Notes: generated by a model not told the origin, from the letters alone. A DNA stretch of 60,458 bases from Spirochaetaceae bacterium (GCA_007695055.1 REEM01000110.1:1-60458), one strand, 5' to 3'; counted from the first letter of the stretch, positions 5,599 through 60,458 are shown. Numbers and translations are program-made.

Positions 5599-5907
5599 AT
5601 GAAGACGAAAGCGGTCAAGACCAAGCAACTACGGGATAACTTAAGTAGCTATCTTCGCGAGGTTCGTGCAGGGGTGCGCATCCTAGTTCTGGATCGAGAC
5701 GAAGTTGTCGCGGAGCTCCACGAGCCGAGCGGGTTATACCCGGCACCGCTTTCGAGCATGGCGGAGGAGCTAGTGAGACAGGCCAAGCTTATTCCGGCAC
5801 GTGGAGAGGCGGTGGAGTGTCCGGAGAGCCCGGTCAAACTGCCTGCCGGTAGCGCTACTCGGTATTTGGACGCGGATAGAGATGAGCCTTATGGCGCTGT
5901 ACGTTGA
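5599..5907 (+). CDS. vapB: Phd/YefM-type antitoxin
   Basis: KAVKTKQLRDNLSSYLREVRAG..ILVLDRDEVVAEL; overlaps PIN gene. Confidence 0.8.
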   Translation: MKTKAVKTKQLRDNLSSYLREVRAGVRILVLDRDEVVAELHEPSGLYPAPLSSMAEELVRQAKLIPARGEAVECPESPVKLPAGSATRYLDADRDEPYGAVR

Positions 5908-6318
5908 CAGCTCGGCAATTCTCGCCTGGATTTTTGGCGAGGCTGCCGGTGAGCACGCACGCAAGGTCATGAACTCGGTGAGCCCCGTAGTCAGCTCTAC
6001 CTTGAGCGTGTTGGAGGTGGAACGTGCGGTGCGGCGAGCCCTCAGCGTAGGGCCATCACCGAAGCTGAGGCCGTTAAGCTTCAAGGTATGTTCCGTTCGG
6101 TCAGTCGTGGTTGGGAGTTTATGGAAATGACCCCTGAGATTCAGCGCCGCGCTGCTGAGTCGTTCCCGGTGGAGCCACTACGCAGCCTTGATGCGCTGCA
6201 TCTTGCGACGGCGCTGTCCTTTCTTGAGTTATACAGCGATCTTAGGGTTTTGAGTTTCGACACGCGAATCCTTGATAATCTTGGTGCTCTCGGGGTGCCT
6301 GACTCTGCCGGTGGTTGA
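5891..6318 (+). pseudogene. vapC: VapC PIN toxin with 1-nt frameshift at about 6050
   Basis: MALYVDSSAIL..EVERAVRR in one frame; AITEAEA..LRSLDALHLATAL..SFD in another; one extra G in the GGG run restores the frame. Confidence 0.8.
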
Positions 6319-6378
6319 GTGGCAGAGGTCTGGGTGGAACTCAACTGCTCAACGAGAGAGCAAACATACTTGATCGCT

Positions 6379-6518
6379 CGGCGCGCATAGTTCCGGATCG
6401 TGACTCACCCGAGCCGAGCTATCCTCAGTTTGTCTCTCGAGCCAAGGCGATATTAGGTGAGGTGAAGGGCGTGCCGGTTAGTGATCTCATTCAGGAAGAC
6501 CGCGGTGAGCGCGTGTGA
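6379..6518 (+). pseudogene. 5'-truncated Phd-type antitoxin remnant
   Basis: ARIVP...VSDLIQEDRGERV* typical C-terminal half, GTGA-coupled to a PIN gene. Confidence 0.6.
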
Positions 6519-6839
6519 ATGCCTGCCTGGACAGCAGTGTCCTGGTGAAGCTCTACTATCCGGAACCGGAGAGCGAGCGTGTTGAGCGCTGGATACATCT
6601 ACACAAAGCACAGCTTCTGTTTACATCTCTTCATGCCCAATTGGTCGCGGGTCTTTCTTGACGCCGAACGCATTGGTGAAACCCTTAGCAGGCGCTTGGG
6701 AACACGGTCGCTCGACATACTGCACATTGCTGTAGCGCGTGATTCGCCGGCCGATGTCTTTCTCACGAATGATGCTCGTCAGGGACACGCTGCGGAACAC
6801 TACGGGCTGCAGGTGGAGTTTCTTTCCGGACTGGACTGA
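6515..6839 (+). pseudogene. vapC: VapC PIN toxin with internal deletion and frameshift at about 6635
   Basis: (M)NACLDSSVLVKLYYPEPES..FTSLH, then a shifted frame with TRSLDILHIAVA..FLTNDARQ; central catalytic Glu helix missing. Confidence 0.8.
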
Positions 6840-6905
6840 GCATATTCGGATTCTCTTTGTGGAAGCGCGAATCCGAGCGTACACCGTAATCCGCGAGTTC
6901 GGAGC

Positions 6906-8189
6906 TTAGGTGCCTATCTCGCGGGCCCGAATTGAGGCAATAGCGCCCGCCGCAACCAGAACCAGCACAATGAGTAGCAAGAAGGCGGGCCGGTAGCTTC
7001 CGGTGAGGTCAAAGACCGCGCCAGCTACGGTGGGGCCTAGAGAGCCCGCAAGCGTGCCCACAAAAATAGTTGTTCCGTAGAGCAGCCCGTGGACTCGGAT
7101 TCCAAACAGCTCCGCCACGAGCGGTGAGACACAGGTGAACATTCCCCCATGGGCAAATCCATAGATCACCGCAAAGAGGTACAGCAGCACAGGGCCAGCC
7201 GCAAATTGCAACAGCACAAAGGACGTCAGCATGATGGCATAGCAGTACAACAGTGCGAGTCGCCCCCCGATCCTGTCCACGAGGCTCCCCATGACCATGC
7301 GCCCAGCTATGCTAAAGCCGCCAATCACCGACAGAAGCCCAGCCGCGAATGCCCGCTCAATCCCAAGGTCGGTGGCGTGCGGTACCAGGTGCACTATGAT
7401 AATGGGGGTGCAGAACAGCACCGCACCCTGCGCAATGCCGAGTCTGAGGAACTCCGGGCGGCGCATCATGTCCCGTGCGCGCTGCGGAGGCGCCTCCGGG
7501 GCACGTTCATCTACCGCTGGGGGAGTTGGGGTCGATGCTTCCACGACGGCTGCTAAGTTCGGGAGTACGGCTGCATCCTGGTGGGGGACACCGGCGTCCT
7601 CGGGTGAGCGGTACATCCAGCGAGCTGCCAAGAAAACCAAGGGGCCGGTCACCGCGGCTATCCACAGGTAGGCGTTGCGCCATCCGAAGAGCGAGATAAG
7701 CACCGCCGCGGCTGCCGGTGCAATGACCTGCCCGGTGCCGGTACCGACCTTGACTATAGCCGACATCCGACCACGTCGCCGCTCAAACCAACGCGCTACC
7801 GCAGAGAGAGTTACTACATCGTGGCTGCCGAAGGCAAGCCCAACAAAAATAGGGTAGGCCACAAGCAGGTGCCACGGCATGGTCATGCGCGACATAATGA
7901 GAAACCCCAGCGTAATGGCAACACCAGCAGCACTGAGAATGCGGCGCGGGCCGGTGACATCTGTGAGCCGTCCAAACAGCATTGCAGTAAAGCCCATTAC
8001 AAGTGATGCAAGCGAAGGCGCCGCCGAGATTGCTGCCCGCGACCAGCCGAGCTCTGTATGCATGGCGTCAAAAAACACACCGTAGGTGAAAATGGCACCG
8101 ACAATGGTGCCCTGAATAACAAAGCCAGCGGCAACAATGGCATAGCCATGGTAATGTTTGCTAAGAAGGGTGACTGATTCTTTTCTCAT
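6906..8189 (-). CDS. MFS transporter (MCT/OFA-like)
   Basis: GRLTDVTGPR and GSLVDRIGGR motif A, WFERRRG, ELFG; about 12 TM segments. Confidence 0.85.
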   Translation of the reverse strand: MRKESVTLLSKHYHGYAIVAAGFVIQGTIVGAIFTYGVFFDAMHTELGWSRAAISAAPSLASLVMGFTAMLFGRLTDVTGPRRILSAAGVAITLGFLIMSRMTMPWHLLVAYPIFVGLAFGSHDVVTLSAVARWFERRRGRMSAIVKVGTGTGQVIAPAAAAVLISLFGWRNAYLWIAAVTGPLVFLAARWMYRSPEDAGVPHQDAAVLPNLAAVVEASTPTPPAVDERAPEAPPQRARDMMRRPEFLRLGIAQGAVLFCTPIIIVHLVPHATDLGIERAFAAGLLSVIGGFSIAGRMVMGSLVDRIGGRLALLYCYAIMLTSFVLLQFAAGPVLLYLFAVIYGFAHGGMFTCVSPLVAELFGIRVHGLLYGTTIFVGTLAGSLGPTVAGAVFDLTGSYRPAFLLLIVLVLVAAGAIASIRAREIGT

Positions 8190-8301
8190 AGGTGGGCTTA
8201 GTATACAGATAACTTTCCAGGTGGGCACGCCGCGATAGCCAGAGTTTCCTTCTGTACCACGAGACAGTACACTACAAGCAACAAAAGGCGTTGAGGTTAC
8301 C

Positions 8302-8976
8302 ATGATACAGTCCCTACGAATCACCACCGGTTATCCCAGCAGGCTGCCTGGAATTGGAGGTCGCACGCATGCCTTTGAGGACCGCATTAATGTGTTGTTT
8401 GGGCCAAACGGAGCTGGAAAGACAACGCTCTTGAGAACACTTGCCGTGTGCACTGGGTGCGGCGAGGGCGGATGGTCGGACCATGGAGCTCCGCAGGACC
8501 CTGGGTACAAGGTACGTCTGCGTTGGAACGGCGACCCGGTCTTTTATCAAGACTGCTACAGCCAGTCCGAGCAGTCGTTCCTGGGGGGCTCATATCTGGA
8601 AGAGCATGAGGTCTTACGCTCGACCGGTGAGAAGCGCATTGGGCTCATTAACGAGCTCATTGACTATCTTGAGGAGCGCTTCCTTACGCATGTAGTTAAG
8701 AAGTCCGGCGAGCGCCCTACGCTGCTGCTGGATGAGGTAGATAACCACATTGGCTTTGCTGGCCAGGCCGTCCTCTGGAAAGAGATATTCCCGCGCCTGT
8801 CAAAAAAGTACCAGCTCATTATTTCCACCCACAGTATCTTTCCGGTGCTGCTGCGCACAGAGAGCAGCTTCCGCAGTGACAACATTATTGAACTCTCACC
8901 CTACTACCGCTTGCAGTGCCTCCAGGCCCTTGGCGAGGCAATAGAGCACTACAACAAGGTTCAGGGCTTGGAGTGA
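8302..8976 (+). CDS. Stand-alone ABC/AAA_21-like ATPase
   Basis: GPNGAGKTT, STGE signature, LLLDEVD, ISTHS. Confidence 0.75.
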   Translation: MIQSLRITTGYPSRLPGIGGRTHAFEDRINVLFGPNGAGKTTLLRTLAVCTGCGEGGWSDHGAPQDPGYKVRLRWNGDPVFYQDCYSQSEQSFLGGSYLEEHEVLRSTGEKRIGLINELIDYLEERFLTHVVKKSGERPTLLLDEVDNHIGFAGQAVLWKEIFPRLSKKYQLIISTHSIFPVLLRTESSFRSDNIIELSPYYRLQCLQALGEAIEHYNKVQGLE

Positions 8977-8991
8977 CAGCAAATCTACCTC

Positions 8992-9040
8992 TTTGTCTGT
9001 GCGCTAACGCACAGACAAACCAATGACTGGTGCCTATTGT
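8992..9040 (+). promoter_or_regulatory. Perfect 12-4-12 inverted repeat containing TGTGC-N6-GCACA (CRP/FNR-like box) plus -10 TATTGT (9035-9040)
   Basis: TTTGTCTGTGCG-CTAA-CGCACAGACAAA; centre at -41.5 relative to the inferred TSS 9047. Confidence 0.65.
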
Positions 9041-25591: not shown

Positions 25592-25921
25592 TCACTCCTC
25601 AATCTGGAGCGCTACCTTAAGTGCCGCCGACAGTTCCGCGAGTTTTCTGTGGCTCAGTGATCCGACGAAGTCGGTGAGGTTGCTTTTTGCTATGCTAACC
25701 AGGCTGTCACAATGGATACAACTTGAATGCTTGAGTCCTTCGGCGACGCCAACGCTTACCTGCGAGGCCAGCCCGCTGTTGTTGGAATAGACAGGTGCAC
25801 ATATTACGGTTGCGTACTGCGACTCAATCACTACCTTTCGGTTTACAACCACAAATGCACGTTGTCGTTTCGGATCAGTCTTGCCTGGTTTTTTTACCAG
25901 GAAGATGTCGCCACGATTCAT
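25592..25921 (-). CDS. mazF: MazF/PemK toxin
   Basis: MNRGDIFLV..KRQRAFVVV..GLKHSSCIHCD. Confidence 0.88.
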   Translation of the reverse strand: MNRGDIFLVKKPGKTDPKRQRAFVVVNRKVVIESQYATVICAPVYSNNSGLASQVSVGVAEGLKHSSCIHCDSLVSIAKSNLTDFVGSLSHRKLAELSAALKVALQIEE

Positions 25922-26145
25922 TCATTGGCCTGAAAGCCAAGCACGTCTATCGCTTCCTCATTGAGCTCATCCGCGTTAGCATTGATTATTTCAAGTTCCT
26001 TCTGGTCCCTTTTCTCCCGTTGATACCGGCGGAGATGGTGCCACGCAGCCTCTTCAATAAACGCTGACCTATTCGCGTGATTGGTCTCTGCAGAGATTGC
26101 TTTGAGAAGCTTTTCCGAGAGCGTAACAGAAGTCTTTACTTTCAT
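25918..26145 (-). CDS. mazE: RHH antitoxin (MazE-like)
   Basis: MKVKTSVTLSEKLL..NRSAFIEEA; ATGA overlap with mazF; promoter TTGTCG-17-TATATT with ATACCACT direct repeats. Confidence 0.8.
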   Translation of the reverse strand: MKVKTSVTLSEKLLKAISAETNHANRSAFIEEAAWHHLRRYQREKRDQKELEIINANADELNEEAIDVLGFQANE

Positions 26146-39904: not shown

Positions 39905-40012
39905 CCTGCATTGCAGGTTCAGTTTGTCTCCGGGCTGAGCTGACACTTCCCCCGTAATTTGCCCGTAACGCTCCCAAATCTTTCTGCCTTTGCGATATAC
40001 TCGTTCAAACAC

Positions 40013-43142: not shown

Positions 43143-43339
43143 AGTTTGGACGCCGAGGTTGCGCGTTGGGCACGAGCAAAGGCCGCGAAGAACGACACAA
43201 GTGCGGTTCCTGAGCAAGCCGGTGCGCCGCCTGCAGTCAAGCAGGATGTACCGAGATCCTCTCTGAAGACTTGAATCCACACCAGGAGTATCTGGGCATT
43301 CGGGTGACAAACCCCTTCGAGACCATTGTGGCTCATTGA
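43143..43339 (+). pseudogene. Collapsed vapBC module, paralog of 46962-47637
   Basis: SLDAEVARWARAKAAKNDTS (antitoxin piece) joined to AACSQAGCTEILSEDLNPHQEYLGIRVTNPF (toxin C-terminus); the intervening sequence is deleted. Confidence 0.85.
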
Positions 43340-43399: not shown

Positions 43400-43672
43400 A
43401 TGAACGTTACCATTGACCGGTTGGGGAGAATTGTTGTGCCTAAGCAGGTTCGCGACAGGTTTCATCTTGTTGCGGGGACTTCCCTTGAGCTTGAGGTGGA
43501 GTCTGATGGAATTCGAATTCGGCCGCTTCACCAGGAGCCAGCGCTGCAGCGAAAGCAGGGTGTGCTGATTCATCACGGGCCGGAAACGGTGAGCCTGGAC
43601 ATGGCGGAGTTTGTTAATCGTGACCGGGCAAACCGGGACACGGATCTCGTCGCCGAAGGGCCCGCAGAGTGA
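43400..43672 (+). CDS. vapB: AbrB/MazE/SpoVT antitoxin
   Basis: TIDRLGRIVVPKQVRDRFHL..G..LELE. Confidence 0.85.
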   Translation: MNVTIDRLGRIVVPKQVRDRFHLVAGTSLELEVESDGIRIRPLHQEPALQRKQGVLIHHGPETVSLDMAEFVNRDRANRDTDLVAEGPAE

Positions 43673-44100
43673 CGGTGCTCTTTGACACATCGGTACTGGT
43701 TCCTGCGCTCGTAGACCAGCTTGCCAACCATCCGGCCTGTTTCTCCGCGTTTGTAGTCGCTACCTCAGACGGAAATCGCGGCGTGTGCTCGACCCACGCC
43801 TTAGCTGAGTGCTACTCCGTGTTGACCTCGTTGCCGGTGCCTCGCCGAATCACCGCGCCGGAGGCGCGGCGGCTTGTTGAGGAAAGCATTCTGCAGCGCT
43901 TAACCGTTGTCGCCCTGAAGACGGAGGACTACCGCGAAGCAATGCGGACTCTTGCTGAGGCTGGCCTCACCGGCGGAGTCATCTACGACGCACTTCACGT
44001 TGCCGCAGCCCGCAAAGAGGGATGCAGTCGCATTCTGACCTACAACCTTCGGCACTTCCAGGCACTCTGCCCACCGGAGATCACTGTCACGGCCCCGTGA
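43669..44100 (+). CDS. vapC: VapC PIN toxin (apparently intact)
   Basis: FDTSVL, LAECYSVLT, IYDALH, TYNLRHF. Confidence 0.88.
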   Translation: MTVLFDTSVLVPALVDQLANHPACFSAFVVATSDGNRGVCSTHALAECYSVLTSLPVPRRITAPEARRLVEESILQRLTVVALKTEDYREAMRTLAEAGLTGGVIYDALHVAAARKEGCSRILTYNLRHFQALCPPEITVTAP

Positions 44101-44129
44101 AGACCCACGAATTGCGTCGTACCCTGTTC

Positions 44130-44378
44130 TCGTGAAACATCGATATCTTCGCGCTCGAGAAGTGATGCGACCCGATCTGGAGTCACCTGAACTGACCCGG
44201 GGCGCTTAGAGTGAACCAGCGGGAACTCAACCCGCCGGGTCTCAATCCTCATTGGGCTTCCGGCGAGCTCGTGCTCAATTGCCTGGGTGATAAATTCCTT
44301 GAGCGTCGTACCCCGCAAAGATGAAACCACCTTGGCTTTGCGGAACAACGCATCTGGCAAATCAATTGTCGTACGCAT
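44130..44378 (-). CDS. Orphan RHH antitoxin; stop lost and cognate toxin cut after ATG TTT
   Basis: MRTTIDLPDALFRKAK..LKEFI; overlapping ATG at 44140 then unrelated sequence; ORF reads on into the convergent vapC. Confidence 0.7.
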
Positions 44379-44429: not shown

Positions 44430-44544
44430 CGAGCAGAAAAGCCCGCAAGAAGCGCATCCAGCCATGAGTCGTCTACCTCAAGCTTGCCGATAGATGCCTT
44501 GATCGCCACCACAACACTATGTGGGTATCAAGGAGAAGGTTCAT
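44430..44544 (-). pseudogene. vapC: VapC remnant with internal deletion and 3' truncation
   Basis: MNLLLDTHIVLWW, then shifted frame AIKASIGKLEVDDSW. Confidence 0.8.
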
Positions 44545-44780
44545 TGTTCGCCCGCTCCAAAGGCGCTGGCGATATCTTCAGGGAGTGTATCAAAGTCATC
44601 TGCAATTCGAATTTTTCCACGGAGCCTTCCCGGCTGACGGACACCGGTTGCCCGGTTATAGGGAACCAGTACGGCAACTGCTTTTCCCGCTTTGCTGATG
44701 ATGACCTCTTCGCCGCTGACCGCACGTTCAACAAGGGCAGACAACTGTGCCTTTGCTTCAGTGATTGTGTTTACTACCAT
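44541..44780 (-). CDS. Phd/YefM antitoxin
   Basis: TITEAKAQLSALVERAVSGEEVIISKAGKAVAVL..IADDFDTLP. Confidence 0.88.
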   Translation of the reverse strand: MVVNTITEAKAQLSALVERAVSGEEVIISKAGKAVAVLVPYNRATGVRQPGRLRGKIRIADDFDTLPEDIASAFGAGEQ

Positions 44781-46961: not shown

Positions 46962-47198
46962 GTGAGAAAACGTAATGTTACTATCAGTCTAGATGCCGAT
47001 GTCGCGCGTTGGGCTCGCATAAAGGCGGCCGAGAACGACACAAGTGTTTCTCGTATGCTGGCTGATCAGCTTGAGCAGCAGATGGCAAAGGACACTGAAT
47101 ATGAGCAGGCACAAGCGCGGTTCTTGAACAAAGCAGGACGTCGCCTCCGAAAAGACAGCACAGCATACCCACAACGAGATACCTTGTACGAGCGGTAA
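46962..47198 (+). CDS. vapB: RHH/CopG antitoxin
   Basis: RNVTISLDADVARWARIKAAENDTSVSRML..RDTLYER. Confidence 0.85.
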   Translation: MRKRNVTISLDADVARWARIKAAENDTSVSRMLADQLEQQMAKDTEYEQAQARFLNKAGRRLRKDSTAYPQRDTLYER

Positions 47199-47637
47199 GC
47201 AGTTTGTGGACACAAACGTGCTCGTGTACAGTCGCGACACCACCGAAGTAGACAAGCACGCCGTCGCCTCGGACATCATGCGGCGTCTGTGGGAGGACCG
47301 CACCGGCGTTATCAGCACGCAGGTGTGCAGTGAGTTCTATGTCACGGTAACGCGAAAGCTTGATCCCGGACTGACGCCCGAAGAAGCATGGGAAGATCTA
47401 GAAGCGCTGCTGGCATGGGATCCGGTCCCGGTGAACGCAAGTTGTATGCGAGTCGCCAGGCATATCGAACTGCGATACGGCCTGTCCTGGTGGGATAGCC
47501 TGATCATTGCGGCCTGCAGCCAGGCCGGTTGTATCGAAATCCTCTCAGAAGACTTGAACCCGGGTCAGGAATATCTGGGTATTCGGGTAACGAATCCGTT
47601 CAATGCCGGTGGGTCAACCCTGGAAACGGAAACGTAA
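47188..47637 (+). CDS. vapC: VapC PIN toxin; native start appears to be ACG (47188), next in-frame start GTG 47206
   Basis: FVDTNVLVY, STQVCSEFY, SWWDSLII, LSEDLN..NPF. Confidence 0.8.
   Translation, partial: TSGKQFVDTNVLVYSRDTTEVDKHAVASDIMRRLWEDRTGVISTQVCSEFYVTVTRKLDPGLTPEEAWEDLEALLAWDPVPVNASCMRVARHIELRYGLSWWDSLIIAACSQAGCIEILSEDLNPGQEYLGIRVTNPFNAGGSTLETET
47366..47533 (+). repeat. 168-bp direct repeat, copy 1 (copy 2 at 60291-60458)
   Basis: By-eye alignment, 4 mismatches. Confidence 0.9.
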
Positions 47638-47668: not shown

Positions 47669-48055
47669 CTATGGAGGCCCATCTAACCACGCTGCGTGTG
47701 AGTAGTTGTCACGGATAGTGCGGTTCCGGGTGCACAACTCCGCACTGTAGGCGAGTGCGTGTGACACAATAAGGCGGTCAAATGGGTCCCGTGTCCATCT
47801 AAGGTGGTTTGCAATCTCGGCAGCCCGTAGCCACCCTGCGGTTTCTATCTGCACGCCAAGGTCACGTTCGAGAACTCCCAGAACTCCGGCCGGATCTTCT
47901 TTAACTCTGCCGATTTCGCACAGGAACGACATCTCCAGCCGCACCATGGGAGAGATGAAGAGCTCACTCTCATCCAGCAGTTGCTGGGTGGAGCCGGGAA
48001 TGCGGTACGGCTCTGCGAACAACCACAGTGCAACGTGTGTGTCTAGAAACACCAC
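47669..48055 (-). CDS. vapC: VapC PIN toxin (DPFDR subtype)
   Basis: FLDTHVALW, SPMVRLE, RDPFDRLI; TAGTG coupling to the antitoxin. Confidence 0.85.
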   Translation of the reverse strand: MVFLDTHVALWLFAEPYRIPGSTQQLLDESELFISPMVRLEMSFLCEIGRVKEDPAGVLGVLERDLGVQIETAGWLRAAEIANHLRWTRDPFDRLIVSHALAYSAELCTRNRTIRDNYSHAAWLDGPP

Positions 48056-48273
48056 TATGGCTTCCACTCCGACGGACTGAAGCTGTCTAGGTTATCTCCG
48101 TTAATTAGCACGCCGTCCCGCGATGGAAGCTCATGTACCTTGAGCCGCCGGGTGTGAGGCCGTAGCGCAACCGTTCCGTGGCGCCGCTCTACCAGCACCG
48201 GCTCGCCGGACTCAATGCACCGGTCAAGAGTGCTAAAGAGATTGCGGCGCAGTTCGCTTGCCTTAATCTGCAT
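48055..48273 (-). CDS. Phd/YefM antitoxin
   Basis: IKASELRRNLFSTLD..GEPVLVERRHG. Confidence 0.82.
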   Translation of the reverse strand: MQIKASELRRNLFSTLDRCIESGEPVLVERRHGTVALRPHTRRLKVHELPSRDGVLINGDNLDSFSPSEWKP

Positions 48274-48335: not shown

Positions 48336-48391
48336 ATGAGTTAGTCAGAAAGCCTTTCAAAAAAGGCAATAGTCAAGCAGTGTATCCTTGA
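48336..48391 (+). pseudogene. Possible AbrB/VapB antitoxin N-terminal scar
   Basis: Off-frame ELVRKPFKKGNSQAVYP* resembles the KxFxxGNSQAVRIP start of AbrB-type VapB. Confidence 0.4.
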
Positions 48392-49374: not shown

Positions 49375-49471
49375 TGTCCGATTTGTTCAATACCATCCTC
49401 AACTGACTCGTTATCCTTGGCATCGTGCGAGCAACGGTATCGTACGAGTACCAAATCGAAGGAGGAAGGGT

Positions 49472-49879: not shown

Positions 49880-49953
49880 ACAGGTCGGAGCGTAGCGCTT
49901 CGACTGCGTGCAACCTGCGTGCAAAACAGGGTTGACCAAATTATCACCGGGTG

Positions 49954-49970
49954 GTTACATTCAATGTAAC
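49954..49970. promoter_or_regulatory. Perfect 8-1-8 palindrome GTTACATT-C-AATGTAAC, probable TetR operator
   Basis: Upstream of the nitroreductase-TetR pair. Confidence 0.6.
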
Positions 49971-49993
49971 TTAACGGTAACAAGAGGTTTTCT

Positions 49994-51148: not shown

Positions 51149-51187
51149 TCGCTGTACACCAGCCGTGCCATCAGATAGACTTGAGGC

Positions 51188-51865: not shown

Positions 51866-51868
51866 GCA

Positions 51869-53299
51869 TCAGCTATCTACGAGGTGTCGTTCTCCGTCGG
51901 CAACAAGCGTTGCAAGTCTGCGGAGAGCCTGCTCCTTGTCATGGTTAAGTATTCCCGGCGCTACGCGAATCCAGCCGTCGTAATCATCTTGGCACCGTGC
52001 AAACATCGCTCCCGGAGCAATAGCAATCCCCTCTTTCCGGGCTGCACGGAAGATATCGCGTCCGGATACTCCTTCAGGCATCCGTATCCAGAGGGCAAAA
52101 CCACCTGAAGGTGCCGTCACTTGAGATCCGGCGGGAAAGGTATCTTGCACCAGCTCGGCGGCCGCTGTCAGACTCTCGTAGACCAGCTTGCGATTGTGGT
52201 CCTGCACTCGGCGAACCTTTCCGGAAGCGAGCATGTGCTCAAGGATTGCAAGCTGCAACGCCGAGACGGTGCATGATGTGGCTTGCCAGCGGTCGCGAAC
52301 ATGTGTCGCATGTGTTCCGGCGGCGACCCATGCTGCCTTGATTGACGGTACAAGCGTCTCTGCATAGGATGAGCACAGAAACACCGAACCTGAGGGGGCC
52401 AACGAGTAGAGGCTTGGGGAAGCTGAAGTTGTGTAGCGCATGTCCCGCAGCATCCCATACTCAATCACCTTCAGCTGAGTCTCATCAACGAGGTGTGCTA
52501 TTTCCGCGAGCACGGACTCCGGAAGGCATGAACCTGTTGGATTGTGTACCGCAGTATCCAAGAGAGCAATTCCTACCTGATTTCGCCGCACTGCCTCGGC
52601 CAGACGCGCGACCGAGAAAGAACCGTCCGGCATTGTGGGCAGCTCAAAAGCCGGCATACCTAAGGCCCGAAGAATCGTCAAATGTCCGTAATACGTTGGA
52701 GCCTGAACCGCAACCGGGAGACGTTGCGGATTGAGCGTTACCAGGAGCTGAAACACGGTTTGCTCTATCGAGCTTGCCAGAACGAGTTGATCAGGATTGA
52801 TAGCAATCCCGTGAAGCATTTCGCGCTGACTGACAAGCGAACGCAACTCTGCGGTGCGTTCAAATGTGGCGAATCCATCGAGGAGTGGAGACTGGGTTGA
52901 TGCGGCCGCTTGCATTGCCGACTTGATCAGGTCCGCCGGTACCAGTTCTTGGGGGAGAACCGCATGATCCATCTTTGCAGTTGTGGGGGCTGCTGCTGGC
53001 CGGCAGGTATATTCCTCAATCACTGCGTCAACAAGATCGTCAACGTACTCCGATCCTTCAAAGACTTCCGGCCGTGAAACCACATAGGTTCCGGCTCGCG
53101 GCCTGCTTTCTATGAGGCCGCGATCCTGCAGTAGGTTCAGGGCCGACTTCATAGTATTTATGCTCGCGGCGAACGACTCAGCGAGCTGGCGAATTGAGGC
53201 AATGCGTTCACCCGGCTCATACACGCCGTCGGCGATAGACTGCTCGATGCGATCCGCGATCACGCGATATCGATGTTCTCGTACTTTTGCCTGAAACAT
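51869..53299 (-). CDS. MocR-like GntR regulator with degenerate PLP site
   Basis: wHTH + aminotransferase fold (HNPTG, PSGGFALW, APG); SYAET in place of SFSK. Confidence 0.82.
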   Translation of the reverse strand: MFQAKVREHRYRVIADRIEQSIADGVYEPGERIASIRQLAESFAASINTMKSALNLLQDRGLIESRPRAGTYVVSRPEVFEGSEYVDDLVDAVIEEYTCRPAAAPTTAKMDHAVLPQELVPADLIKSAMQAAASTQSPLLDGFATFERTAELRSLVSQREMLHGIAINPDQLVLASSIEQTVFQLLVTLNPQRLPVAVQAPTYYGHLTILRALGMPAFELPTMPDGSFSVARLAEAVRRNQVGIALLDTAVHNPTGSCLPESVLAEIAHLVDETQLKVIEYGMLRDMRYTTSASPSLYSLAPSGSVFLCSSYAETLVPSIKAAWVAAGTHATHVRDRWQATSCTVSALQLAILEHMLASGKVRRVQDHNRKLVYESLTAAAELVQDTFPAGSQVTAPSGGFALWIRMPEGVSGRDIFRAARKEGIAIAPGAMFARCQDDYDGWIRVAPGILNHDKEQALRRLATLVADGERHLVDS

Positions 53300-53322
53300 A
53301 TGGTATCATAGCGCATCCTAAG

Positions 53323-53391
53323 GATACAGTTCAGGACACAGTTGCTGCGGACTGGATAGATACACAGCGCGGACCGGCTACGCGGTACAGC
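53323..53391. promoter_or_regulatory. MocR-type GAYACAG direct repeats
   Basis: GATACAGTT 53323, GACACAGTT 53335, GGTACAG about 53383. Confidence 0.6.
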
Positions 53392-53623
53392 CTTGTACAT
53401 CCGGCGAGGTCACACGAATAGTAGCCGGGCCGCTCCCGGGGTTCACTGCAACGGCCACGTTTCGCACGTCGGTGGAGCAGTACGAAGCACCCATAGGAAG
53501 GATAATGTCTCGTCCGTTGTCGGTTACCCATACGGTTCCTGCAACAGCAAAAACGCTGCTGCCGCCGACAATGGAGAGAGTTTCACGCGGACCAAGAATA
53601 ACGGTTTGTATGTGAGTTTTCAT
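53378..53623 (-). CDS. DUF2917-like small protein
   Basis: GTVWVT..GRDIILPMG motif; typical MocR neighbour. Confidence 0.65.
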   Translation of the reverse strand: MKTHIQTVILGPRETLSIVGGSSVFAVAGTVWVTDNGRDIILPMGASYCSTDVRNVAVAVNPGSGPATIRVTSPDVQGCTA

Positions 53624-53707
53624 GTGACAACACTACGCGTAACCAAGTTAAAGAACGAGACACAATACGGGGTGCTTCAAAGGGTACAGCACGGACGTGT
53701 GCGGGGC

Positions 53708-55183
53708 TCAGGGGCCGGTGCGATCGGCCGTACGGCAGGCAGCCGAGCCGATGGCTTTGATTGCAGCCTCTACGGTGGAATCCCACTTGGTAGCATTAAC
53801 CCGCATACAGTTCCGATAGTTGCCACTGAGGGTAAACATCGGCCCCGGCGCAAAACAGATCTGCTCACGCCGGACCTGCTCATACACTTCCGTGACGTTG
53901 ATCTGCGGCGGCAAGACGATCCAGATCACCATTCCGCCCGCAGGATTGGTCATCTGTGTTCCTTGCGGAAAGCTCTCAAGAACAGCCCTCCGCACCTGTG
54001 AGACCGACTCGCGGTAATGGCGCCGTGCCGACCGGAGCCACCGCTCATGGCCTCCATTCGCCAGAAACGCGGCAATCCCGAGTGACGTTGGAATAACGAC
54101 CGCGGCTGAGGTGACCAGCTTCGAGTGGGTAACCGGACCGATCAGGGTAGGGCCGGTGGCTATCCAGCCCACGCGGTATCCGGGAGCAATCGACTTGCTG
54201 AAGGACGCGCATAAGAGCGTGCGGTTTGGGTCGGTGAACGAGGCCAGTGATGGAGGCCGTTCTACATTCCAGGCCATCTCTCCGTACATATCGTCTTCCA
54301 CCAGAATCACCTCATGGCGCTCCAGTACCGCTGCGATCCGCCTCTTGCGCTCAATTGGAATTAACGACCCAATGGGATTCGAGAAGTTTGCGATAAGCAC
54401 AGCGGCAGCTACTTTTGGTCCAACACCTCGCTGGCGACGTCGCTCTGCATCTGTAAGGATCTGGTCGAGGTCTTCAGGGTCTACGCCTGTTGAAGGGCGA
54501 CTTGGTATCTCGATGGCTTGGAGCCGTAGCTTTTCCAGGAGCTGGTAGAAAAGGAAGAAGCCGGGTGACTCAATCACCACCGAATCACCGGGAGAACATA
54601 CCGTCATGAGGGAGAGAAATACCGCCTCGAGACATCCGGCCGTGATGAGTATCTGATCCGGTGACACCGATACGCTGCCACGAAACAAACGTCTGGCAAT
54701 CTCCAGTCGAAGCACCTCTGGGCCCGGGGGTAGCTCATAGCTCACTGCACGTTCCGGTTGGCGCCGCAGTTCTTTTGCCGTCAAGTCCGCCAAACGGCGT
54801 GCGGGAAGCAAGGCCGCAGGTGGCTCAGCCGTGGCCAGGTTGACCCAGCCCGGACGCATACAGTCCTGCATGACGCGCTGCGTGAGACTTCCTGCGGACG
54901 CGTCCCGTGGTATGGACTCAGCCGGGTCAGGGAAGTCCATTGAGCAGTCGTCACACAATGGCGGCAGCCGGAGCACGAAGTGCCCGGAGTGACTTCGGGG
55001 GTTAACGATTCCCCGGTCTTCCAAGAGCCGGTAAGCCTCCCGGGCGGTATTTATGCTCACCTGAAACTCCCGATGAATATCCCTAATCGATGGAAGACGT
55101 TCACCCGGTTCGTATACGCCGGTTGCAATGGTTTCTTCCAGTCGTTGTGCTACCTCTTGATACAACGGAATAGCTTTTGACAT
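53708..55183 (-). CDS. MocR-family PLP-dependent regulator
   Basis: LPSIR wHTH, SNPIG, EDDMY, SFSKSIAPGYRVGW. Confidence 0.9.
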   Translation of the reverse strand: MSKAIPLYQEVAQRLEETIATGVYEPGERLPSIRDIHREFQVSINTAREAYRLLEDRGIVNPRSHSGHFVLRLPPLCDDCSMDFPDPAESIPRDASAGSLTQRVMQDCMRPGWVNLATAEPPAALLPARRLADLTAKELRRQPERAVSYELPPGPEVLRLEIARRLFRGSVSVSPDQILITAGCLEAVFLSLMTVCSPGDSVVIESPGFFLFYQLLEKLRLQAIEIPSRPSTGVDPEDLDQILTDAERRRQRGVGPKVAAAVLIANFSNPIGSLIPIERKRRIAAVLERHEVILVEDDMYGEMAWNVERPPSLASFTDPNRTLLCASFSKSIAPGYRVGWIATGPTLIGPVTHSKLVTSAAVVIPTSLGIAAFLANGGHERWLRSARRHYRESVSQVRRAVLESFPQGTQMTNPAGGMVIWIVLPPQINVTEVYEQVRREQICFAPGPMFTLSGNYRNCMRVNATKWDSTVEAAIKAIGSAACRTADRTGP

Positions 55184-55194
55184 CTCTGCCTTCC

Positions 55195-56337
55195 TTACAT
55201 ACCCTGAACCGCCGCTGCAATGCGCCCCACTGCATCCGGAATGAGACGCTCCGACACATTCGTGAAGTTAAGTCGTATGGTCGATCTGTCAGGCTCTTGG
55301 AGGTAAAAGTGTTGTCCCGGCACAAAAGCCACGCCGCGCTTGATTGCGTAACCGAACAGCTCTTCCGTCGGCACCGGGAGCGATGCCCAGAGGAACATTC
55401 CACCGCCAGCGACCCAGGGGATTCGAGCCCCGGGCACGAGTGTTTCGATAGCCTGCACCAGCGCATCACGTTGAGCTTGGTATGTGCGGCATATACGTGA
55501 TAGGTGCGCATCAAGGTTGAACTCTCCGCCGGTGAGTAGCTCCCGGAGAATTGACTGGATTAAGGTCGATGTATGCAGATCTGTTGCTTGCTTGATTGGC
55601 TCCAAGTGTTCCAACAGCGAACAATGGGCACGAATAAAACCCAGCCGCAAGGACGGTGCCACCGACTTTGAAAAGCTCCCAAGATAGATGACCCGGTCGG
55701 GCACTCTTTGGGCGACCAAGGGTGAGTCGGTTTCACCGAAGCTAATCTCACCGTAGGGATCATCTTCAATCATCCAGCAGTCTGTCTTCATGAGAAGTTC
55801 CGCCATGGCGTTCGCAGTGGCTGCGGGGTAGCTGCGGCCGGTAGGGTTCTGAAATCGGCTCATGCCGTAGTACACCGCAGCACCTGTGTCAAATGCTTGT
55901 TCGAGCGTCTCCAGATCAGGCCCGGCGTCATTCAACGGAACCGGAATCAGCGGCACGCGGGAAGCTTGGAACGCCAGACGAGCGCCAAGATAGCCTGGGT
56001 CTTCAAAGGCAATCGGCCGGTCGGAAAACAGTTTTGCACACAGATCAAGTCCTTGCTGGGAGCCGGAGGTGATCATGACCTCATCCGGGGTGGTTGGGAT
56101 ACCATGATGTGAGCACAAACGATCGGCAATCCAGCTGCGCAGATCGGCGTCTCCGGAGCTTGCTCCGTATTGTAGTACTGAGGCACCGTCTTGCATAAGC
56201 ACGCGGTCTGCCGCAGCTCGGATTTCATCCACGGGAAATAGATCAGCCAGCGGAAGTCCACCTGCCAGACTCAGAACCTCGGGTGATGATGCGACCCTGA
56301 GAATCTCACGAATAAAAGACCGTTCTACACCATACAT
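55195..56337 (-). CDS. Class I PLP aminotransferase (LysN-like)
   Basis: SFIREIL, SLAGGLP, FQNPTG, EDDPY, SFSKSVAPSLRLG. Confidence 0.88.
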   Translation of the reverse strand: MYGVERSFIREILRVASSPEVLSLAGGLPLADLFPVDEIRAAADRVLMQDGASVLQYGASSGDADLRSWIADRLCSHHGIPTTPDEVMITSGSQQGLDLCAKLFSDRPIAFEDPGYLGARLAFQASRVPLIPVPLNDAGPDLETLEQAFDTGAAVYYGMSRFQNPTGRSYPAATANAMAELLMKTDCWMIEDDPYGEISFGETDSPLVAQRVPDRVIYLGSFSKSVAPSLRLGFIRAHCSLLEHLEPIKQATDLHTSTLIQSILRELLTGGEFNLDAHLSRICRTYQAQRDALVQAIETLVPGARIPWVAGGGMFLWASLPVPTEELFGYAIKRGVAFVPGQHFYLQEPDRSTIRLNFTNVSERLIPDAVGRIAAAVQGM

Positions 56338-56388
56338 CTGAAATGCTCCCTTCTGTTCCTATCATACATAGGAAATGTAGCAGTAGAG

Positions 56389-56485
56389 GACACAGATGAT
56401 AAGACACAGTTTGCCTGCAAGTATTGGGCACACTTTCCAATGCCTCGCGCGCGGGTGTGACTATCCGCGAAATACTAACTGTGTC
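56389..56485. promoter_or_regulatory. MocR-type direct + inverted GACACAG repeats in the divergent aminotransferase/EamA promoter
   Basis: GACACAGAT 56389, GACACAGTT 56403, AACTGTGTC 56477. Confidence 0.65.
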
Positions 56486-56521
56486 TGGTCTTCATTAACT
56501 GCGTGACGTACCGTAGCGCGC

Positions 56522-57337
56522 ATGAAGAGCAAAAACGGCGTTACACGGAAGCCGCTGGTATGGATCGTTTACGCGGCTCTCTGTCTCATTTTTGGTACTA
56601 CATTCCTGGCGATCAAGATTGGATCCAATGCTGGGATACCTCCTTTTATTGGTGCGGGTGTGCGTTTTGTGGTGGCCGGTGTGGTATTGGTTGTCCTCCG
56701 CGGTAAACTTCGAGGACCCCAGCGGCCATCCCTGAGCTTTGTGGGCAAGGCAAGTTTGCTCGGGCTCGGTATGGTTGGCTTAGCATTTGCGTGTACCTAT
56801 TGGTCGATACAGCACCTTCAGTCCGGGTATGCCGCTCAGATACAGTCGAGTGCGCCCATCATTGTAGCTCTCCTCGCGGCGGTGGGGGCCCTTGTGGCGC
56901 TGGGTGCGGAGCTCTTTTTTGGCTTAGGTACCATTTGGCATCGCTTCGCGTTTGACAAGGGTGTAGATAGTCTCCAGGTAAACGGATTCAGCATGCTTTC
57001 TGGGGGACTCTTCTTATGCGTGATTGCCGTGGCCACGGCTCAGACGGGGTTGCCGCTAAGCTTTGCTGCACTAAGCTCATTGCTCTACTTGGTAGTCGTT
57101 GGCTCCATTGGCGGCCACTCGATGTATTTGTGGCTGGTCGGCCAAACCGGTCCGGTCTTTGCGTCAACTTGGTTGTATATTTCGCCCGTGATCGCTACCT
57201 TCGTAGGCTCCGTCGTGCTTTCAGAGGCGGTCGGCGCCTCAACCATAGCAGGAGCCGCACTTGTACTCATGGGGGTTTACTGGATTAACCGGGCTGAGCA
57301 CGGCGGGCGGCTTTTCGCTGAAAAACGGAACTACTAA
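56522..57337 (+). CDS. EamA/DMT transporter, probably internally deleted
   Basis: IFGTTFLAIK..PPF..R, YLVVVGS, YISPVIA..LSE; TM5/linker appears absent. Confidence 0.78.
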   Translation: MKSKNGVTRKPLVWIVYAALCLIFGTTFLAIKIGSNAGIPPFIGAGVRFVVAGVVLVVLRGKLRGPQRPSLSFVGKASLLGLGMVGLAFACTYWSIQHLQSGYAAQIQSSAPIIVALLAAVGALVALGAELFFGLGTIWHRFAFDKGVDSLQVNGFSMLSGGLFLCVIAVATAQTGLPLSFAALSSLLYLVVVGSIGGHSMYLWLVGQTGPVFASTWLYISPVIATFVGSVVLSEAVGASTIAGAALVLMGVYWINRAEHGGRLFAEKRNY

Positions 57338-57352
57338 AGGGGAGCAACATCT

Positions 57353-58537
57353 ATGACCGACACAGGGCTCTCGAGTTCGCTGACATTGCCCTGTGGTGTG
57401 GTTCTCAAGAATCGCTGCGCCAAGTCGGCGATGTCGGACTCACTTGGTGATGGGAGGGGGAATCCAACCGACGGTCAAGTTGCTTTGTACTCAAGATGGG
57501 CCTATGGTGGAGCCGGGCTTTTGATTGTGGGAGAGGTGCACGGAGATCCACAATACCTTGAGAAACCGGGGAACCTGGTTATGCGTAGCGACTCCGATCA
57601 CCGGCGCTTCCGCGAACTGGCCGCCGCTGGCCGTGAGAACAATGCCCATCTCTGGCTACAACTTGGGCACGCTGGTGCGTTGGCATACCCGCCGTGCGGC
57701 AGGCCGGTGGGGCCCAGCGCGCTTGACCTGCCCGAGCTCAGCTGCGACGCAATGACGCTGCCCGAGATCGCCAACCTGCCTGGCTTCTTTGCCGAAACTG
57801 CGCGTTTAGCGCGTGAGTTAGGGTTTGGGGGTGTTCAACTGCACGCCGCCCACGGGTTTCTCCTGAGCCAATTCTTGTCACCGCGATTTAACCTGCGAGG
57901 GGACGCCTATGGCGGCGGTGTGGCAAACCGGGTGCGGCTGTTGGTGGAGGTTATAGAACAGGTCCGCGCGGCTGTAGGTCCGGACTTCCCAGTTGCCATC
58001 AAGCTAAACTCAAGTGACGGCATTGAAGGTGGATTGGGGGCAGAGGATGCCTTGCAGATGCTCAGGATCTTGGACCAGACCTCAGTTGACTTGATTGAGA
58101 TTAGCGGAGGAAGCTACTTTCCCGGTGCGCAAAAACAATTAGCTCAGAGACGAAGCGGCCCGTATTTCACGGAATTCACTCTTGATGCGCGCAACTGTAC
58201 CGAAAAACCGCTCATGGTGACCGGCGGGTTCAAGACACGTGAACAGGCTGAGCTTGCGCTCGAAAGCGGAGCAGCGGATATCGTGGGAATGGCCAGGGCT
58301 CTGGTACTGAACCCCGAGCTTCCTCAGGATTGGATGGAAGGAAAGGCTGTGCAGCCGGAGTTTCCCGTTTTCTCAGAAGCTCCGGAGGGTGGTGTTACCG
58401 CATGGTACACCATGAAGCTCGCGGAGTACGCGGGGTGCGGGCCGCGCGTGGACACAATCTTGGCACGGCAAGCACTTGAGCTCTACGATCAGCGGGACCA
58501 AGACAGAGTTAGACTATGGAATGAGAGGTTTCTATGA
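57353..58537 (+). CDS. NADH:flavin oxidoreductase (OYE family)
   Basis: LKNRCAKSAM, QLGHAG, QLHAAHGFLLSQFLSP, EISGG, GMAR. Confidence 0.9.
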   Translation: MTDTGLSSSLTLPCGVVLKNRCAKSAMSDSLGDGRGNPTDGQVALYSRWAYGGAGLLIVGEVHGDPQYLEKPGNLVMRSDSDHRRFRELAAAGRENNAHLWLQLGHAGALAYPPCGRPVGPSALDLPELSCDAMTLPEIANLPGFFAETARLARELGFGGVQLHAAHGFLLSQFLSPRFNLRGDAYGGGVANRVRLLVEVIEQVRAAVGPDFPVAIKLNSSDGIEGGLGAEDALQMLRILDQTSVDLIEISGGSYFPGAQKQLAQRRSGPYFTEFTLDARNCTEKPLMVTGGFKTREQAELALESGAADIVGMARALVLNPELPQDWMEGKAVQPEFPVFSEAPEGGVTAWYTMKLAEYAGCGPRVDTILARQALELYDQRDQDRVRLWNERFL

Positions 58538-59374
58538 GTGCGCAGTTGGCGTACCCTTCTGAGACAGACTATACCCAATAGACCACTCGCCGTACTGCGT
58601 CTGCCATACCGCTATTGGAACAACGGCGACCTCGGGAGGGAGTCCAGTCGCCCGTGCTGTTCGCCGCACAAGTTCCGCCTGAGGCACAGCTGCTTCACTG
58701 ACGCCGAAGTAGGCCGTCCCCGCCTGGGCGTGCTCAAGCACTTCGGCATACAGACGGGCAAGATGGTCACGGCGGACGAGCGGCCAGGTCGCTTCCTCAG
58801 GAATTGGTATGCGAATACGGCCTGAGGCACTTGCGTCGGTCAGCAGGAGCGGCGGAACACCGGATTCTTCGTCTGTGACATTAGCCGGATGTATGACCAT
58901 GCCGTAGAGATCCGGGTGTGACAGAACTCTCAGGCACCCGTCGGTCGCCCACTGCCAGGAGCTCGGCGCGTTGTAGGGAGTCCGTGAGTCTGGTGCAGCA
59001 CTGCATGATCCAAACAGCCATAGGCCGCCGGTGTAGATAAGCCTTAGCTTATCCCCCGAGGCCTCGCTAGTTTGTGCCGCGGTGCGGGAGGCCGCGTGAG
59101 CGAAGATCGCGTTAAGGAGACTCCGGTCTACATCGCCTGCATCCGGCCCGAAACCCGTTGCAAGGTGAATAACAGCATCTGCCTCTGAGAGCCGTTCTAC
59201 CCAGTCTGCGGGAGTCGAGATTGAGCCATGAAGGACGGCAGCACCGAGTTCCCGAGCACGATCCGCCGAGGAATCCGAGCGGCAGAGAATGGTGGCTGCG
59301 TGACCTCTTGTGAGCAGTTCGCCGACAACCGCGCTGCCGACAGATCCTGTTCCACCCAGTATCAGTACGCGCAT
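58532..59374 (-). CDS. NAD-dependent epimerase/extended SDR, possibly C-terminally truncated
   Basis: GGTGSVG, AVIHLA, YTGGLW; ends abruptly, overlapping the OYE stop. Confidence 0.75.
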   Translation of the reverse strand: MRVLILGGTGSVGSAVVGELLTRGHAATILCRSDSSADRARELGAAVLHGSISTPADWVERLSEADAVIHLATGFGPDAGDVDRSLLNAIFAHAASRTAAQTSEASGDKLRLIYTGGLWLFGSCSAAPDSRTPYNAPSSWQWATDGCLRVLSHPDLYGMVIHPANVTDEESGVPPLLLTDASASGRIRIPIPEEATWPLVRRDHLARLYAEVLEHAQAGTAYFGVSEAAVPQAELVRRTARATGLPPEVAVVPIAVWQTQYGEWSIGYSLSQKGTPTAHS

Positions 59375-59465
59375 TATGCCACTGAGTGTACAAGGAAGCG
59401 GTGGAGTTGAACATGGCGGAGCTCGTTATGTGGTCTGCGTACGCCTGCCCGTCACGAGGAGCTTC

Positions 59466-59549
59466 AAGCCACGTAGCATGCGTGTCTTGAAACACCATTA
59501 TGGGTTTCCACTCCGACGGGCTGAAGCTGTCGAGCATGTCCCCGTCAAC
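59466..59549 (-). pseudogene. Junction scar of a Phd-vapC pair paralogous to 47669-48273
   Basis: DGDMLDSFSPSEWKP + MVFQDTHA vs NGDNLDSFSPSEWKP* + VVFLDTHV. Confidence 0.85.
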
Positions 59550-59605
59550 CGTGACCGTGACAATCCCAAACAAAGACGGTGCCTGCCTTCTTCAGCGCAT
59601 GCCCG

Positions 59606-60223
59606 CTACCGATACATCCCAATCCGCCGGACGGATATGTCCGCTTCAAACGCGGTAGTGCCCGCAACGATAGCAATAGATTGAAGCTGTCGCAGATTTG
59701 GAGTTCCGCGCCTGAACATAGAAGAGCCGGAGAAGTCGTCGAAGGGTATGCGTACGGTTTGCCACTGCGCGCTGACCGGAAGTGGGGCAGCGTAGTAGGA
59801 CCAGGGGAGCAAGTTCTGTGTTGTTCGCACATGCACAAAGTAGTTTCCCGCGCTTCCGCGAACATCAAGTTCTATCCCGCGGTAGTCGCGTGCATCAAGC
59901 CGTTTCTCTCCGTTTTTCAGCGGCAGGCGGACTTGTATGAAACCACCATTATTCTCAAGCGATACTCTGCCGGTCATTCGGAGAAAACGGCTATTCGGTT
60001 CCTGTACAATGTGTGCCCGCATATCGGATCGTCCACCCATGACCCTGTCGGTTAAGCTCTGCCATGCGGTACCATGGGTCGATATGCCATTTGCATTTGT
60101 GAAGTCATCGAGGAGCAGAAGCGACTCTGGGGGCGTGTCGGCCATACCAGTAAAGCCTCCCGGAACCGTGAGCAGAAACAAGATGATCCCTACCGTGAAT
60201 ATTCGCCGCCGCAGTTCATTCAT
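59606..60223 (-). CDS. Secreted CIA30-family protein
   Basis: Signal peptide, DRVMGGRS, VSLENNGGF, WQTVRIPFDDF. Confidence 0.85.
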   Translation of the reverse strand: MNELRRRIFTVGIILFLLTVPGGFTGMADTPPESLLLLDDFTNANGISTHGTAWQSLTDRVMGGRSDMRAHIVQEPNSRFLRMTGRVSLENNGGFIQVRLPLKNGEKRLDARDYRGIELDVRGSAGNYFVHVRTTQNLLPWSYYAAPLPVSAQWQTVRIPFDDFSGSSMFRRGTPNLRQLQSIAIVAGTTAFEADISVRRIGMYR

Positions 60224-60290
60224 GCTTGTAAGTTACTTTGAAATCACGATCGAACCAATCCTGGCCTCCGGCGTTTGTCGCCAAAACACA

Positions 60291-60458
60291 CCGGACTGAC
60301 GCCCGAGGAAGCATGGGAAGATATAGAAGCGCTGATAGCATGGGATCCGGTCCCGGTGAACGCAAGTTGTATGCGAGTCGCCAGGCATATCGAACTGCGA
60401 TACGGCCTGTCCTGGTGGGATAGCCTGATCATTGCGGCCTGCAGCCAGGCCGGTTGTA
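60291..60458 (+). pseudogene. vapC: 5'-truncated near-identical vapC copy (runs off window end)
   Basis: Matches 47366-47533 with 4 mismatches; no homology upstream of 60291. Confidence 0.85.

Follow-up and report, generated by a model that had tools for sequence, protein, structure and literature searches.

Type II toxin-antitoxin (TA) operons have been described in chromosomal regions of high gene turnover. Belot et al. (Mol Biol Evol 2026, PMC13617665) describe TA systems of Photorhabdus clustering in small high-turnover spots, some of these islets being devoid of mobile-element genes, and report that the TA systems do not preserve their neighbourhood and that pseudogenisation affects the toxin only (N=185), both genes (N=186) or the antitoxin only (N=8). 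You et al. (2011, PMC3119797) place vapBC pairs of Sulfolobales among non-essential transport and metabolic genes in labile regions of gene gain and loss, and argue that similar copies would offset each other's loss. Here we analyse a stretch of 60,458 bases (the window), which is the entire contig C130 of the spirochaete metagenome-assembled genome (MAG) G000 and which contains TA genes and TA scars, mostly of the vapBC-type, in which a PIN toxin is combined with an antitoxin of the Phd, AbrB, RHH or DUF6364 kind, along with a single mazEF. We show that the clustering of TA loci in the window is real and well beyond chance, and our data make it probable that the window is a TA erosion spot, lying in a permissive chromosomal region of high turnover in which selfish type II TA operons accumulated and are now eroding.

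The window resembles the Photorhabdus spots (PMC13617665) in high turnover, in frequent toxin pseudogenisation and module deletion and in toxin inactivation preceding antitoxin loss. It differs from them in belonging to another phylum, in coming from a MAG instead of closed genomes and being known from sequence alone, and in holding three paralogous copies of one family within 17 kb as well as successive modules abutting inside each other's toxin genes. With the Sulfolobales regions the window shares vapBC operons being concentrated in variable regions and being gained and lost; in contrast, the Sulfolobales loci are archaeal, with insertion sequences or miniature inverted-repeat transposable elements (IS/MITE) nearby and with unique and mostly intact copies, whereas the window is mostly eroded and contains one family thrice (PMC3119797). 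The pattern has already been described in Photorhabdus (PMC13617665) and in outline in Sulfolobales (PMC3119797), and the spirochaete is a new example of a known phenomenon. This suggests that the life cycle of TA acquisition and erosion, known from an enterobacterium, is likewise at work in an uncultured spirochaete of soda-lake and sediment metagenomes, with several decay stages of the same loci being visible across congeners. It is also a warning for annotation, as orphan antitoxins and TA scars of 30-200 bp populate the 'intergenic' DNA of variable regions. Anti-addiction modules and orphan antitoxins were reportedly treated by Saavedra De Bast et al. in 2008; the likeness is that chromosomal antitoxins in the window outlast a working cognate toxin, the difference that no plasmid or phage partner was identified for them, and the order of decay would explain the persistence of orphan antitoxins equally well.

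The model we propose derives most of its steps from what is known about how type II TA systems behave. Horizontal transfer would bring a TA operon into a region tolerating insertions. As long as the toxin is active, loss of the antitoxin would be lethal, and for this reason the first viable lesion would hit the toxin, by frameshift, start loss or deletion. The antitoxin would then be neutral or cross-neutralising and could linger, to be truncated or deleted later, leaving scars. The cargo beside the TA modules would turn over independently, by deletion and by recombination in conserved flanking genes, the TA modules being passengers and deletion-tolerant endpoints, not the recombination machinery.

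Clustering of TA loci and direction of decay

G000 comprises 3.43 Mb in 245 contigs (92% complete, 3.1% contamination), C130 accounting for 1.76% of the assembly; soda-lake metagenome runs contain near-identical DNA, and sediment and aquatic runs contain roughly a quarter of the sampled words. Each of the twelve coordinates at which TA material had been predicted was checked by six-frame translation, Pfam, NCBIfam and self-BLAST. Between 10 and 30 related genomes were searched with the three thirds of the window, the congeneric MAGs G001-G005 and G028 being among the sources, and independent Logan contigs were placed on 41000-60458, i.e. X1 from the possible source run, X2 from a second sample of the same study, and X4 and X6, which cover only parts of this range, X6 representing a related population at approximately 95% identity.

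C130 carries 4 of the 23 PIN genes of the genome (5 of 24 matches; binomial p = 6.5e-4) and 3 of its 19 Phd matches (binomial p = 4.3e-3). The TA operons lie on both strands and TA DNA sums to approximately 8.3% of the window by the coordinates of its parts; no DNA copy of a window TA module was found on other G000 contigs at E<=1e-4. What marks the window as a TA erosion spot is this clustering (p = 6.5e-4) together with 12 turnover events and an excess of toxin-only and two-gene lesions far above antitoxin-only ones. TA clustering also occurs elsewhere in G000, C22 having four PINs within 2.3 kb, and PIN matches that extend over roughly half of the query (C233:28264-28485, C22:27179-27352, C222:10727-10891) point to TA erosion beyond C130.

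TA-derived DNA is present at 11 of the 12 coordinates. Three pairs are intact (mazEF, 43400-44100 and 47669-48273) and erosion has affected eight or nine loci, the lesions being a frameshift, internal deletions, truncations or loss of the ATG. Lesions hit only the toxin at three loci (5599, 44130 and 44541), to which the loss of the toxin start at 46962 can be added, and both genes are lost at five (6381, 39911, 43143, 59466 and 60291); antitoxin-only lesions number zero, no eroded locus keeping an intact toxin beside a dead antitoxin. Four further toxin-only cases and no antitoxin-only case were found among the relatives' loci examined. For the locus at 5599 (TA1), the toxin is missing its N-terminal half in G002:C47 and only the antitoxin is kept in G001:C349; a PIN of the type found at 6381 (TA2) has an in-frame stop beside an intact 80-aa antitoxin in G005:C238. 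G028:C191 has a truncated toxin. Type II biology predicts this asymmetry, since losing the antitoxin first would be lethal. For several eroded loci, intact counterparts in congeneric MAGs and in independent metagenome contigs show that the lesions are derived states.

The original prediction of a toxin-biased inactivation is thereby borne out (3-4 toxin-only, five two-gene and no antitoxin-only cases), and the three pairs it had called intact (mazEF, 43400-44100) or full-length (47669-48273) all have open frames with full domains. Its count of twelve TA loci or scars has to be reduced by 48336, which we rejected as TA material, as no Pfam match at E<=0.05 in any frame of at least 29 aa in 48270-48640 and no tblastx match to the genome or to the relatives' loci was found. 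Antitoxins persisting next to damaged toxins were confirmed at 5599, 44130 and 44541 and not at 46962, where the toxin is not clearly damaged.

Structure of the individual loci

The loci show the VapBC layout of a small antitoxin gene immediately 5' of a PIN gene, with an AbrB/MazE (43400), Phd (44541, 48055, 5599) or DUF6364 antitoxin (46962). Antitoxin and toxin overlap by 4-26 bp in the list of open reading frames (ORFs), and for the 46962 pair the overlap is 11 bp when counted from the canonical start of the toxin. The PF01850 profile, 120 positions long, is covered at positions 1-114 in 43669-44100, 4-111 in 47206-47637 and 1-116 in 47669-48067, all other PINs being fragments.

TA1 starts with an intact ORF for a Phd/YefM-like antitoxin (5599..5907, + strand; weak PF02604 match, E=0.003), just 5' of which the palindrome I6 with 28-nt overlapping arms (5559..5602) is a probable operator. 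The PIN toxin (5882..6318, +) is a pseudogene with a net -1 frameshift near 6045-6052, its two ORFs matching PIN profile positions 2-47 and 66-114. Orthologues of the antitoxin adjoin a PIN in G004:C246, in which the toxin is a single 169-aa ORF covering PIN positions 2-116. A short-chain dehydrogenase (SDR) N-terminus at 2-199 (-) runs off the contig start and an internal SDR fragment at 5382-5564 (+; positions 77-118) precedes TA1, while an intact SDR gene adjoins TA1 in G004:C246 and G001:C349. In TA2, translation reveals a 5'-truncated antitoxin remnant of the C-terminal ~45 codons (6381..6518, +), for which G005:C238 has a complete 80-aa homologue, followed by a PIN whose two fragments do not share a reading frame (6518-6658 and 6696-6839, +; PIN positions 2-29 and 77-118). 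The mazEF pair consists of an intact mazF-like toxin gene (25592..25921, -; PF02452, E=6.9e-14, positions 2-108 of 109) and, upstream of it with a 4-bp overlap, an intact mazE/RHH-like antitoxin ORF (25918..26145, -) with weak matches to RHH_1 (E=0.011) and to NF050104 MazE (E=8e-4).

At 39911..39940 (+), a probable micro-scar of the last ~10 codons of a TA2-type PIN (tblastx to the end of the G001:C134 PIN, E=3.6e-5) lies between a small conserved ORF and a histidine kinase gene, and a PIN piece occurs at the same place in G001. The small ORF (39650-39904, +; 84 aa) is conserved in G002:C1, G003:C22 and G004:C132 and matches no family; in the window it lies 3' of the synthetase gene, and in G002 and G004 beside a TA2-type scar upstream of serA. 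We rejected it as an antitoxin, since in G002:C1 it is followed by a Phd-type antitoxin remnant of its own standing, together with a PIN scar; with a distinct antitoxin remnant present there, it is a neighbour and not a toxin partner.

Within 43143-44780 four modules follow each other closely. The scar at 43143..43339 (+) results from an internal deletion, fusing the N-terminus of a 46962-type antitoxin (43143-43202) to a PIN C-terminus (43226-43339), its parts being 81% identical to 46985-47046 and 80% identical to 47509-47601. A full operon of this type occupies the orthologous place in G003:C4, with 88-91% identity to the scar and 83% to the 46962 copy, and X6 has a full operon at this locus as well (joint 47589->43307). 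The intact pair downstream is formed by a VapB antitoxin of the AbrB/MazE fold (43400..43672, +; PF04014, E=1.2e-10; TIGR01439) and a VapC PIN toxin (43669..44100, +; PF01850, E=1.2e-12, positions 1-114), the latter carrying a 91-bp deletion in the X6 population. Its 3' end is overlapped by the orphan antitoxin at 44040..44378 (-), which lost its native stop, gained a C-terminal extension and overlaps a toxin stub of a few codons (44123-44146). Although this antitoxin has no Pfam or NCBIfam match, BLASTP to a congener's PF09957 protein (E=0.001), an Atlas feature score of 0.93 to antitoxin/PF09957 clusters and an 83-aa homologue in G028:C191, followed there by the toxin start 'FLPDVNV', support with moderate confidence that it belongs to the VapB-like antitoxins. 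The same junction of vapC and orphan antitoxin is found in G003:C4. At 44061 the assembly has G, and A is found in the contigs of each of the four runs, the possible source among them. Next comes an intact Phd-family antitoxin (44541..44780, -; PF02604, E=9e-11; TIGR01552) whose PIN survives as a remnant (44444..44544, -) of 13 N-terminal codons, an out-of-frame internal deletion and a middle piece, the 3' third being missing; intact PINs of ~130 aa follow antitoxins of this type in G001:C366 and G028:C181.

The 46962 pair combines an intact DUF6364-like antitoxin (46962..47198, +; PF19891, E=8.5e-5) with a PIN toxin of full ORF (47188..47637, +; PF01850, E=4.7e-10), the canonical ATG of which (47188-47190) has become ACG, leaving as sole start a GTG at 47206, six codons downstream. 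In all three relatives examined the toxin starts with ATG ('MSAKQFVDTN'), overlapping the antitoxin stop. Pairwise dN/dS is 0.09-0.18 for the toxin and, against three orthologues, 0.06-0.09 for the antitoxin, values which are rough because dS is saturated (~1.4-1.5 for the antitoxin, G000 versus relatives). Given the GTG start and the low toxin dN/dS, the toxin appears not clearly damaged and should not be called dead. A phmmer search of the PIN starting at 47206 against PDB sequences gave no match at E<=0.01. In the possible source run a minor variant is present at 47195, 47208 and 47217 (depth 4.7 of 10.8), which restores the relatives' letters around the toxin start and which is the sole form in X4 (all three sites) and X6 (47195 and 47208, with 47217 uncovered); it may represent another copy or a co-existing strain.

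Adjacent to this pair, an intact PIN toxin (47669..48067, -; PF01850, E=5.9e-11, positions 1-116) and an intact Phd-like antitoxin (48055..48273, -; PF02604, E=1.6e-4) have an intact orthologue in G001:C366. This 2.9-kb contig contains three apparently intact TA pairs back to back, two of them orthologous to the pairs at 47669 and 44541, and looks like a compact TA islet. A scar of the 47669-type, 70-78 bp long and comprising antitoxin end and toxin start over ~25 codons, lies at 59466..59548 (-) and is 83% identical to 48036-48104 over 70 bp. The contig ends inside a third 46962-type PIN (60291..60458, +), a 3' half cut at its 5' side and 97.6% identical to 47366-47533. The 46962-type family thus has three direct copies within 17 kb (43143, 46962 and 60291), all of them impaired, and as three similar copies are redundant, loss of individual copies would be easier.

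Gene turnover and rival explanations

Comparison with relatives mapped 12 indel or replacement events, 8 of which have TA DNA at the junction. G001:C258 is without TA1, TA2 and the MFS gene (5381-8238), and an SDR gene replaces TA2 in G004:C246. A GNAT gene and a VapB_antitoxin gene replace the deacetylase-Liv block in G003:C22, where the VapB_antitoxin gene (PF09957, E=1.6e-14) followed by a 149-aa GNAT gene (5075-5902, -) is a possible GNAT-type TA pair. In G001:C134 a PIN lies between synthetase and kinase, and in G002:C1 and G004:C132 a TA2-type scar replaces mazEF upstream of serA. The remaining TA-associated events are G002:C89, lacking AraC-VOC next to a 52-bp antitoxin scar, X6, lacking the 47669 pair (joint 47644->48590), and the internal deletion at 43143. 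Four events have no TA DNA at either edge, i.e. 8212-8994, 27497-28150 and 29469-30790, all versus G003, and 49960-51868, which is absent from a 6-kb X6 contig. At most events the TA module itself was gained or lost with breakpoints at its own edges, and the X4 join 46894->47814 likewise shows a TA module being the indel. As TA DNA makes up such a small part of the window, its association with the events looks real; the association does not show cause.

The TA junctions had been read as vapBC paralogs acting as recombination anchors, i.e. as portable homology by which RecA-type recombination assembles, excises and exchanges cargo without an integrase, and we consider this unlikely. The reading gains from TA DNA lying at 8 of 12 events, from the TA2-type scar at the rearrangement junction upstream of serA in G002 and G004, and above all from the three direct 46962-type copies, which bracket two cargo blocks. 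Copies 2 and 3 share a direct repeat of 168 bp (47366-47533 and 60291-60458; 97.6% identity, 121-bp exact match) bracketing 12.8 kb of cargo, and both bracketing copies are apparently full-length in X6, which shows a full operon beside the CIA30 gene (joint 60284->46920); in the X6 population the block would thus be bracketed by full-length, near-identical operons. The 168-bp repeat could mediate deletion or excision of the 12.8-kb block, and may itself stem from recent duplication or conversion, as suggested by its 97.6% identity compared to only 80-83% between congener orthologues. RecA-dependent exchange usually needs 20-30 bp. Of the four paralogue pairs within the window, the other three have an identity of 80-83% and exact matches no longer than 11, 14 and 15 bp, which is too short for RecA-type recombination, and most modules have TA neighbours of unrelated families that show no similarity at the DNA level. 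Only for the 12.8 kb between 47533 and 60291 do recombination-competent TA repeats lie on either side of the cargo. The breakpoint comparison among MAGs is divided, as a third of the events lack TA DNA at either edge, and AraC-VOC has TA DNA on one side only. The 6.5-kb tract from 49923 to ~56400 (nitroreductase-like, TetR, two MocR, aminotransferase) is 90-99% identical to G002:C89, and since other matches between G000 and G002 reach only 69-87% it points to a recent exchange between congeners; its right end, where identity drops to 76-83%, is located within the EamA transporter gene and not within a TA module. G003:C4 was considered as a recombinant of copies 1 and 3 and rejected, as the NmrA-like gene 5' of its TA copy resembles 58532-59374 in the Rossmann N-terminus only and is not the orthologue expected of such a recombinant. 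A limited literature search on TA paralogues as rearrangement breakpoints returned no paper with the term toxin-antitoxin. While TA DNA at junctions is confirmed in a biased sample, the anchor role is not supported for most of the region, given the short exact matches, TA-free cargo turnover and TA modules being their own indels, and is left as a minority reading confined to the 46962-type copies. Should this reading hold, cargo genes would be moved by TA operons without any recombinase. Its strongest form, in which the 46962-type operon is a portable homology arm and a RecA crossover could excise a 12.8-kb circle and re-insert it wherever a copy exists, strikes us as less plausible still; such a circle would carry its own addiction module and amount to a composite mobile unit that needs no transposase.

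Chromosomal integrons and islands typically contain TA cassettes, which raises the alternative that the region is the remnant of a mobile element, i.e. a sedentary integron with an attC cluster or an integrative island, with the recombinase deleted or beyond the contig ends. Both contig ends are indeed open, the right one breaking in a repeat, and Belot et al. propose mobile-element acquisition followed by streamlining (PMC13617665). However, searches of the 45 main ORFs, 30 small ORFs and 146 intergenic frames of C130 revealed no integrase, transposase or resolvase domain, and the genome-wide matches to PF00589 (three; C71 twice and C9) and PF00665 (C32, C118, C58 and C11) lie on other contigs, PF01609 having no match in the genome, in agreement with the original prediction that no mobile-element enzyme is present. 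Neither a tRNA nor an Rfam family was found on C130, and a general repeat scan, with no dedicated attC model, gave no repeat family or recurrent inverted repeat, attC-like or terminal, beyond the TA paralogues, which are the only direct repeats. Chromosomal (super)integrons resemble the window in many small TA operons being interleaved with cargo; the window differs in having no IntI and no attC-like repeat family on C130, in TA operons lying in both orientations, and in multi-gene cargo with its own regulators, unlike promoterless cassettes. A mobile-element remnant is thus very unlikely. We regard it as even harder to believe that the scars are artefacts of assembly or binning, i.e. chimeric joins at repeats or strain mixtures. 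The metagenomic source, the contig end in a repeat, the minor variant near the 46962-pair toxin start and the differing base at 44061 would allow for it. X1 contigs, however, match 43249-47194 with one difference and 48170-60325 with none, an X2 contig matches 47556-60367 with one difference, and both bridge the 60291 junction; the breaks at 47194-47249 and 47442-47556 fall inside the repeated PIN, as expected of a repeat. Since deletion scars and the 60291 junction recur in Logan contigs of two samples, the large lesions within 41000-60458 are not assembly artefacts, and the shared junction in G003:C4 and the merely 80-83% identity of most scars to their paralogues argue in the same direction.

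Several points weigh against the erosion-spot interpretation. The share of 8 of 12 events is biased upward, the relatives being fragmentary MAGs several of whose contigs were chosen through TA matches, and TA DNA occurring at many junctions despite its small share of the window is still compatible with a causal role. The independent-contig check covers 41000-60458, at a distance from the frameshift of TA1 and the lesions of TA2 (5599-6839), and the X4 and X6 joints, placed at 90% likeness, may stem from other organisms. The word intact denotes an open frame with full domain coverage, at the level of sequence. With both ends of C130 open and the MAG in 245 contigs, a recombinase may lie just beyond.

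Cargo genes and neighbouring observations

By Pfam, the cargo among the 45 main ORFs consists of ordinary chromosomal genes. These encode ZnuABC with CobW and a WD40 protein, an MFS transporter, a 3018-aa GH94 glucan-synthase-like protein, Crp, an amine oxidase, CobW-DinB-Fur with an iron-type ABC system, a serA-like dehydrogenase, a beta-lactamase-fold protein, an AAA_14-DUF4143 ATPase, a deacetylase with a Liv-type ABC system, an acetyl-CoA-synthetase-like enzyme and a histidine kinase. Further cargo comprises a GntR-ABC unit, TetR with flavodoxin-like genes, AraC with a VOC protein, a nitroreductase-like gene with TetR, two MocR regulators with an aminotransferase, EamA, an OYE flavoenzyme, an NmrA-like protein and CIA30.

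The AAA_14-DUF4143 ATPase gene (29548-30732, -) is absent from the corresponding place in G003:C22, and G002:C89 has a paralogue of it two genes away from its TA scar. A 167-aa ORF without a family match and with a Lys/Ala/Pro-rich tail (27555-28058, -) occupies the position at which G003:C22 carries a TetR gene and a zinc alcohol dehydrogenase gene.

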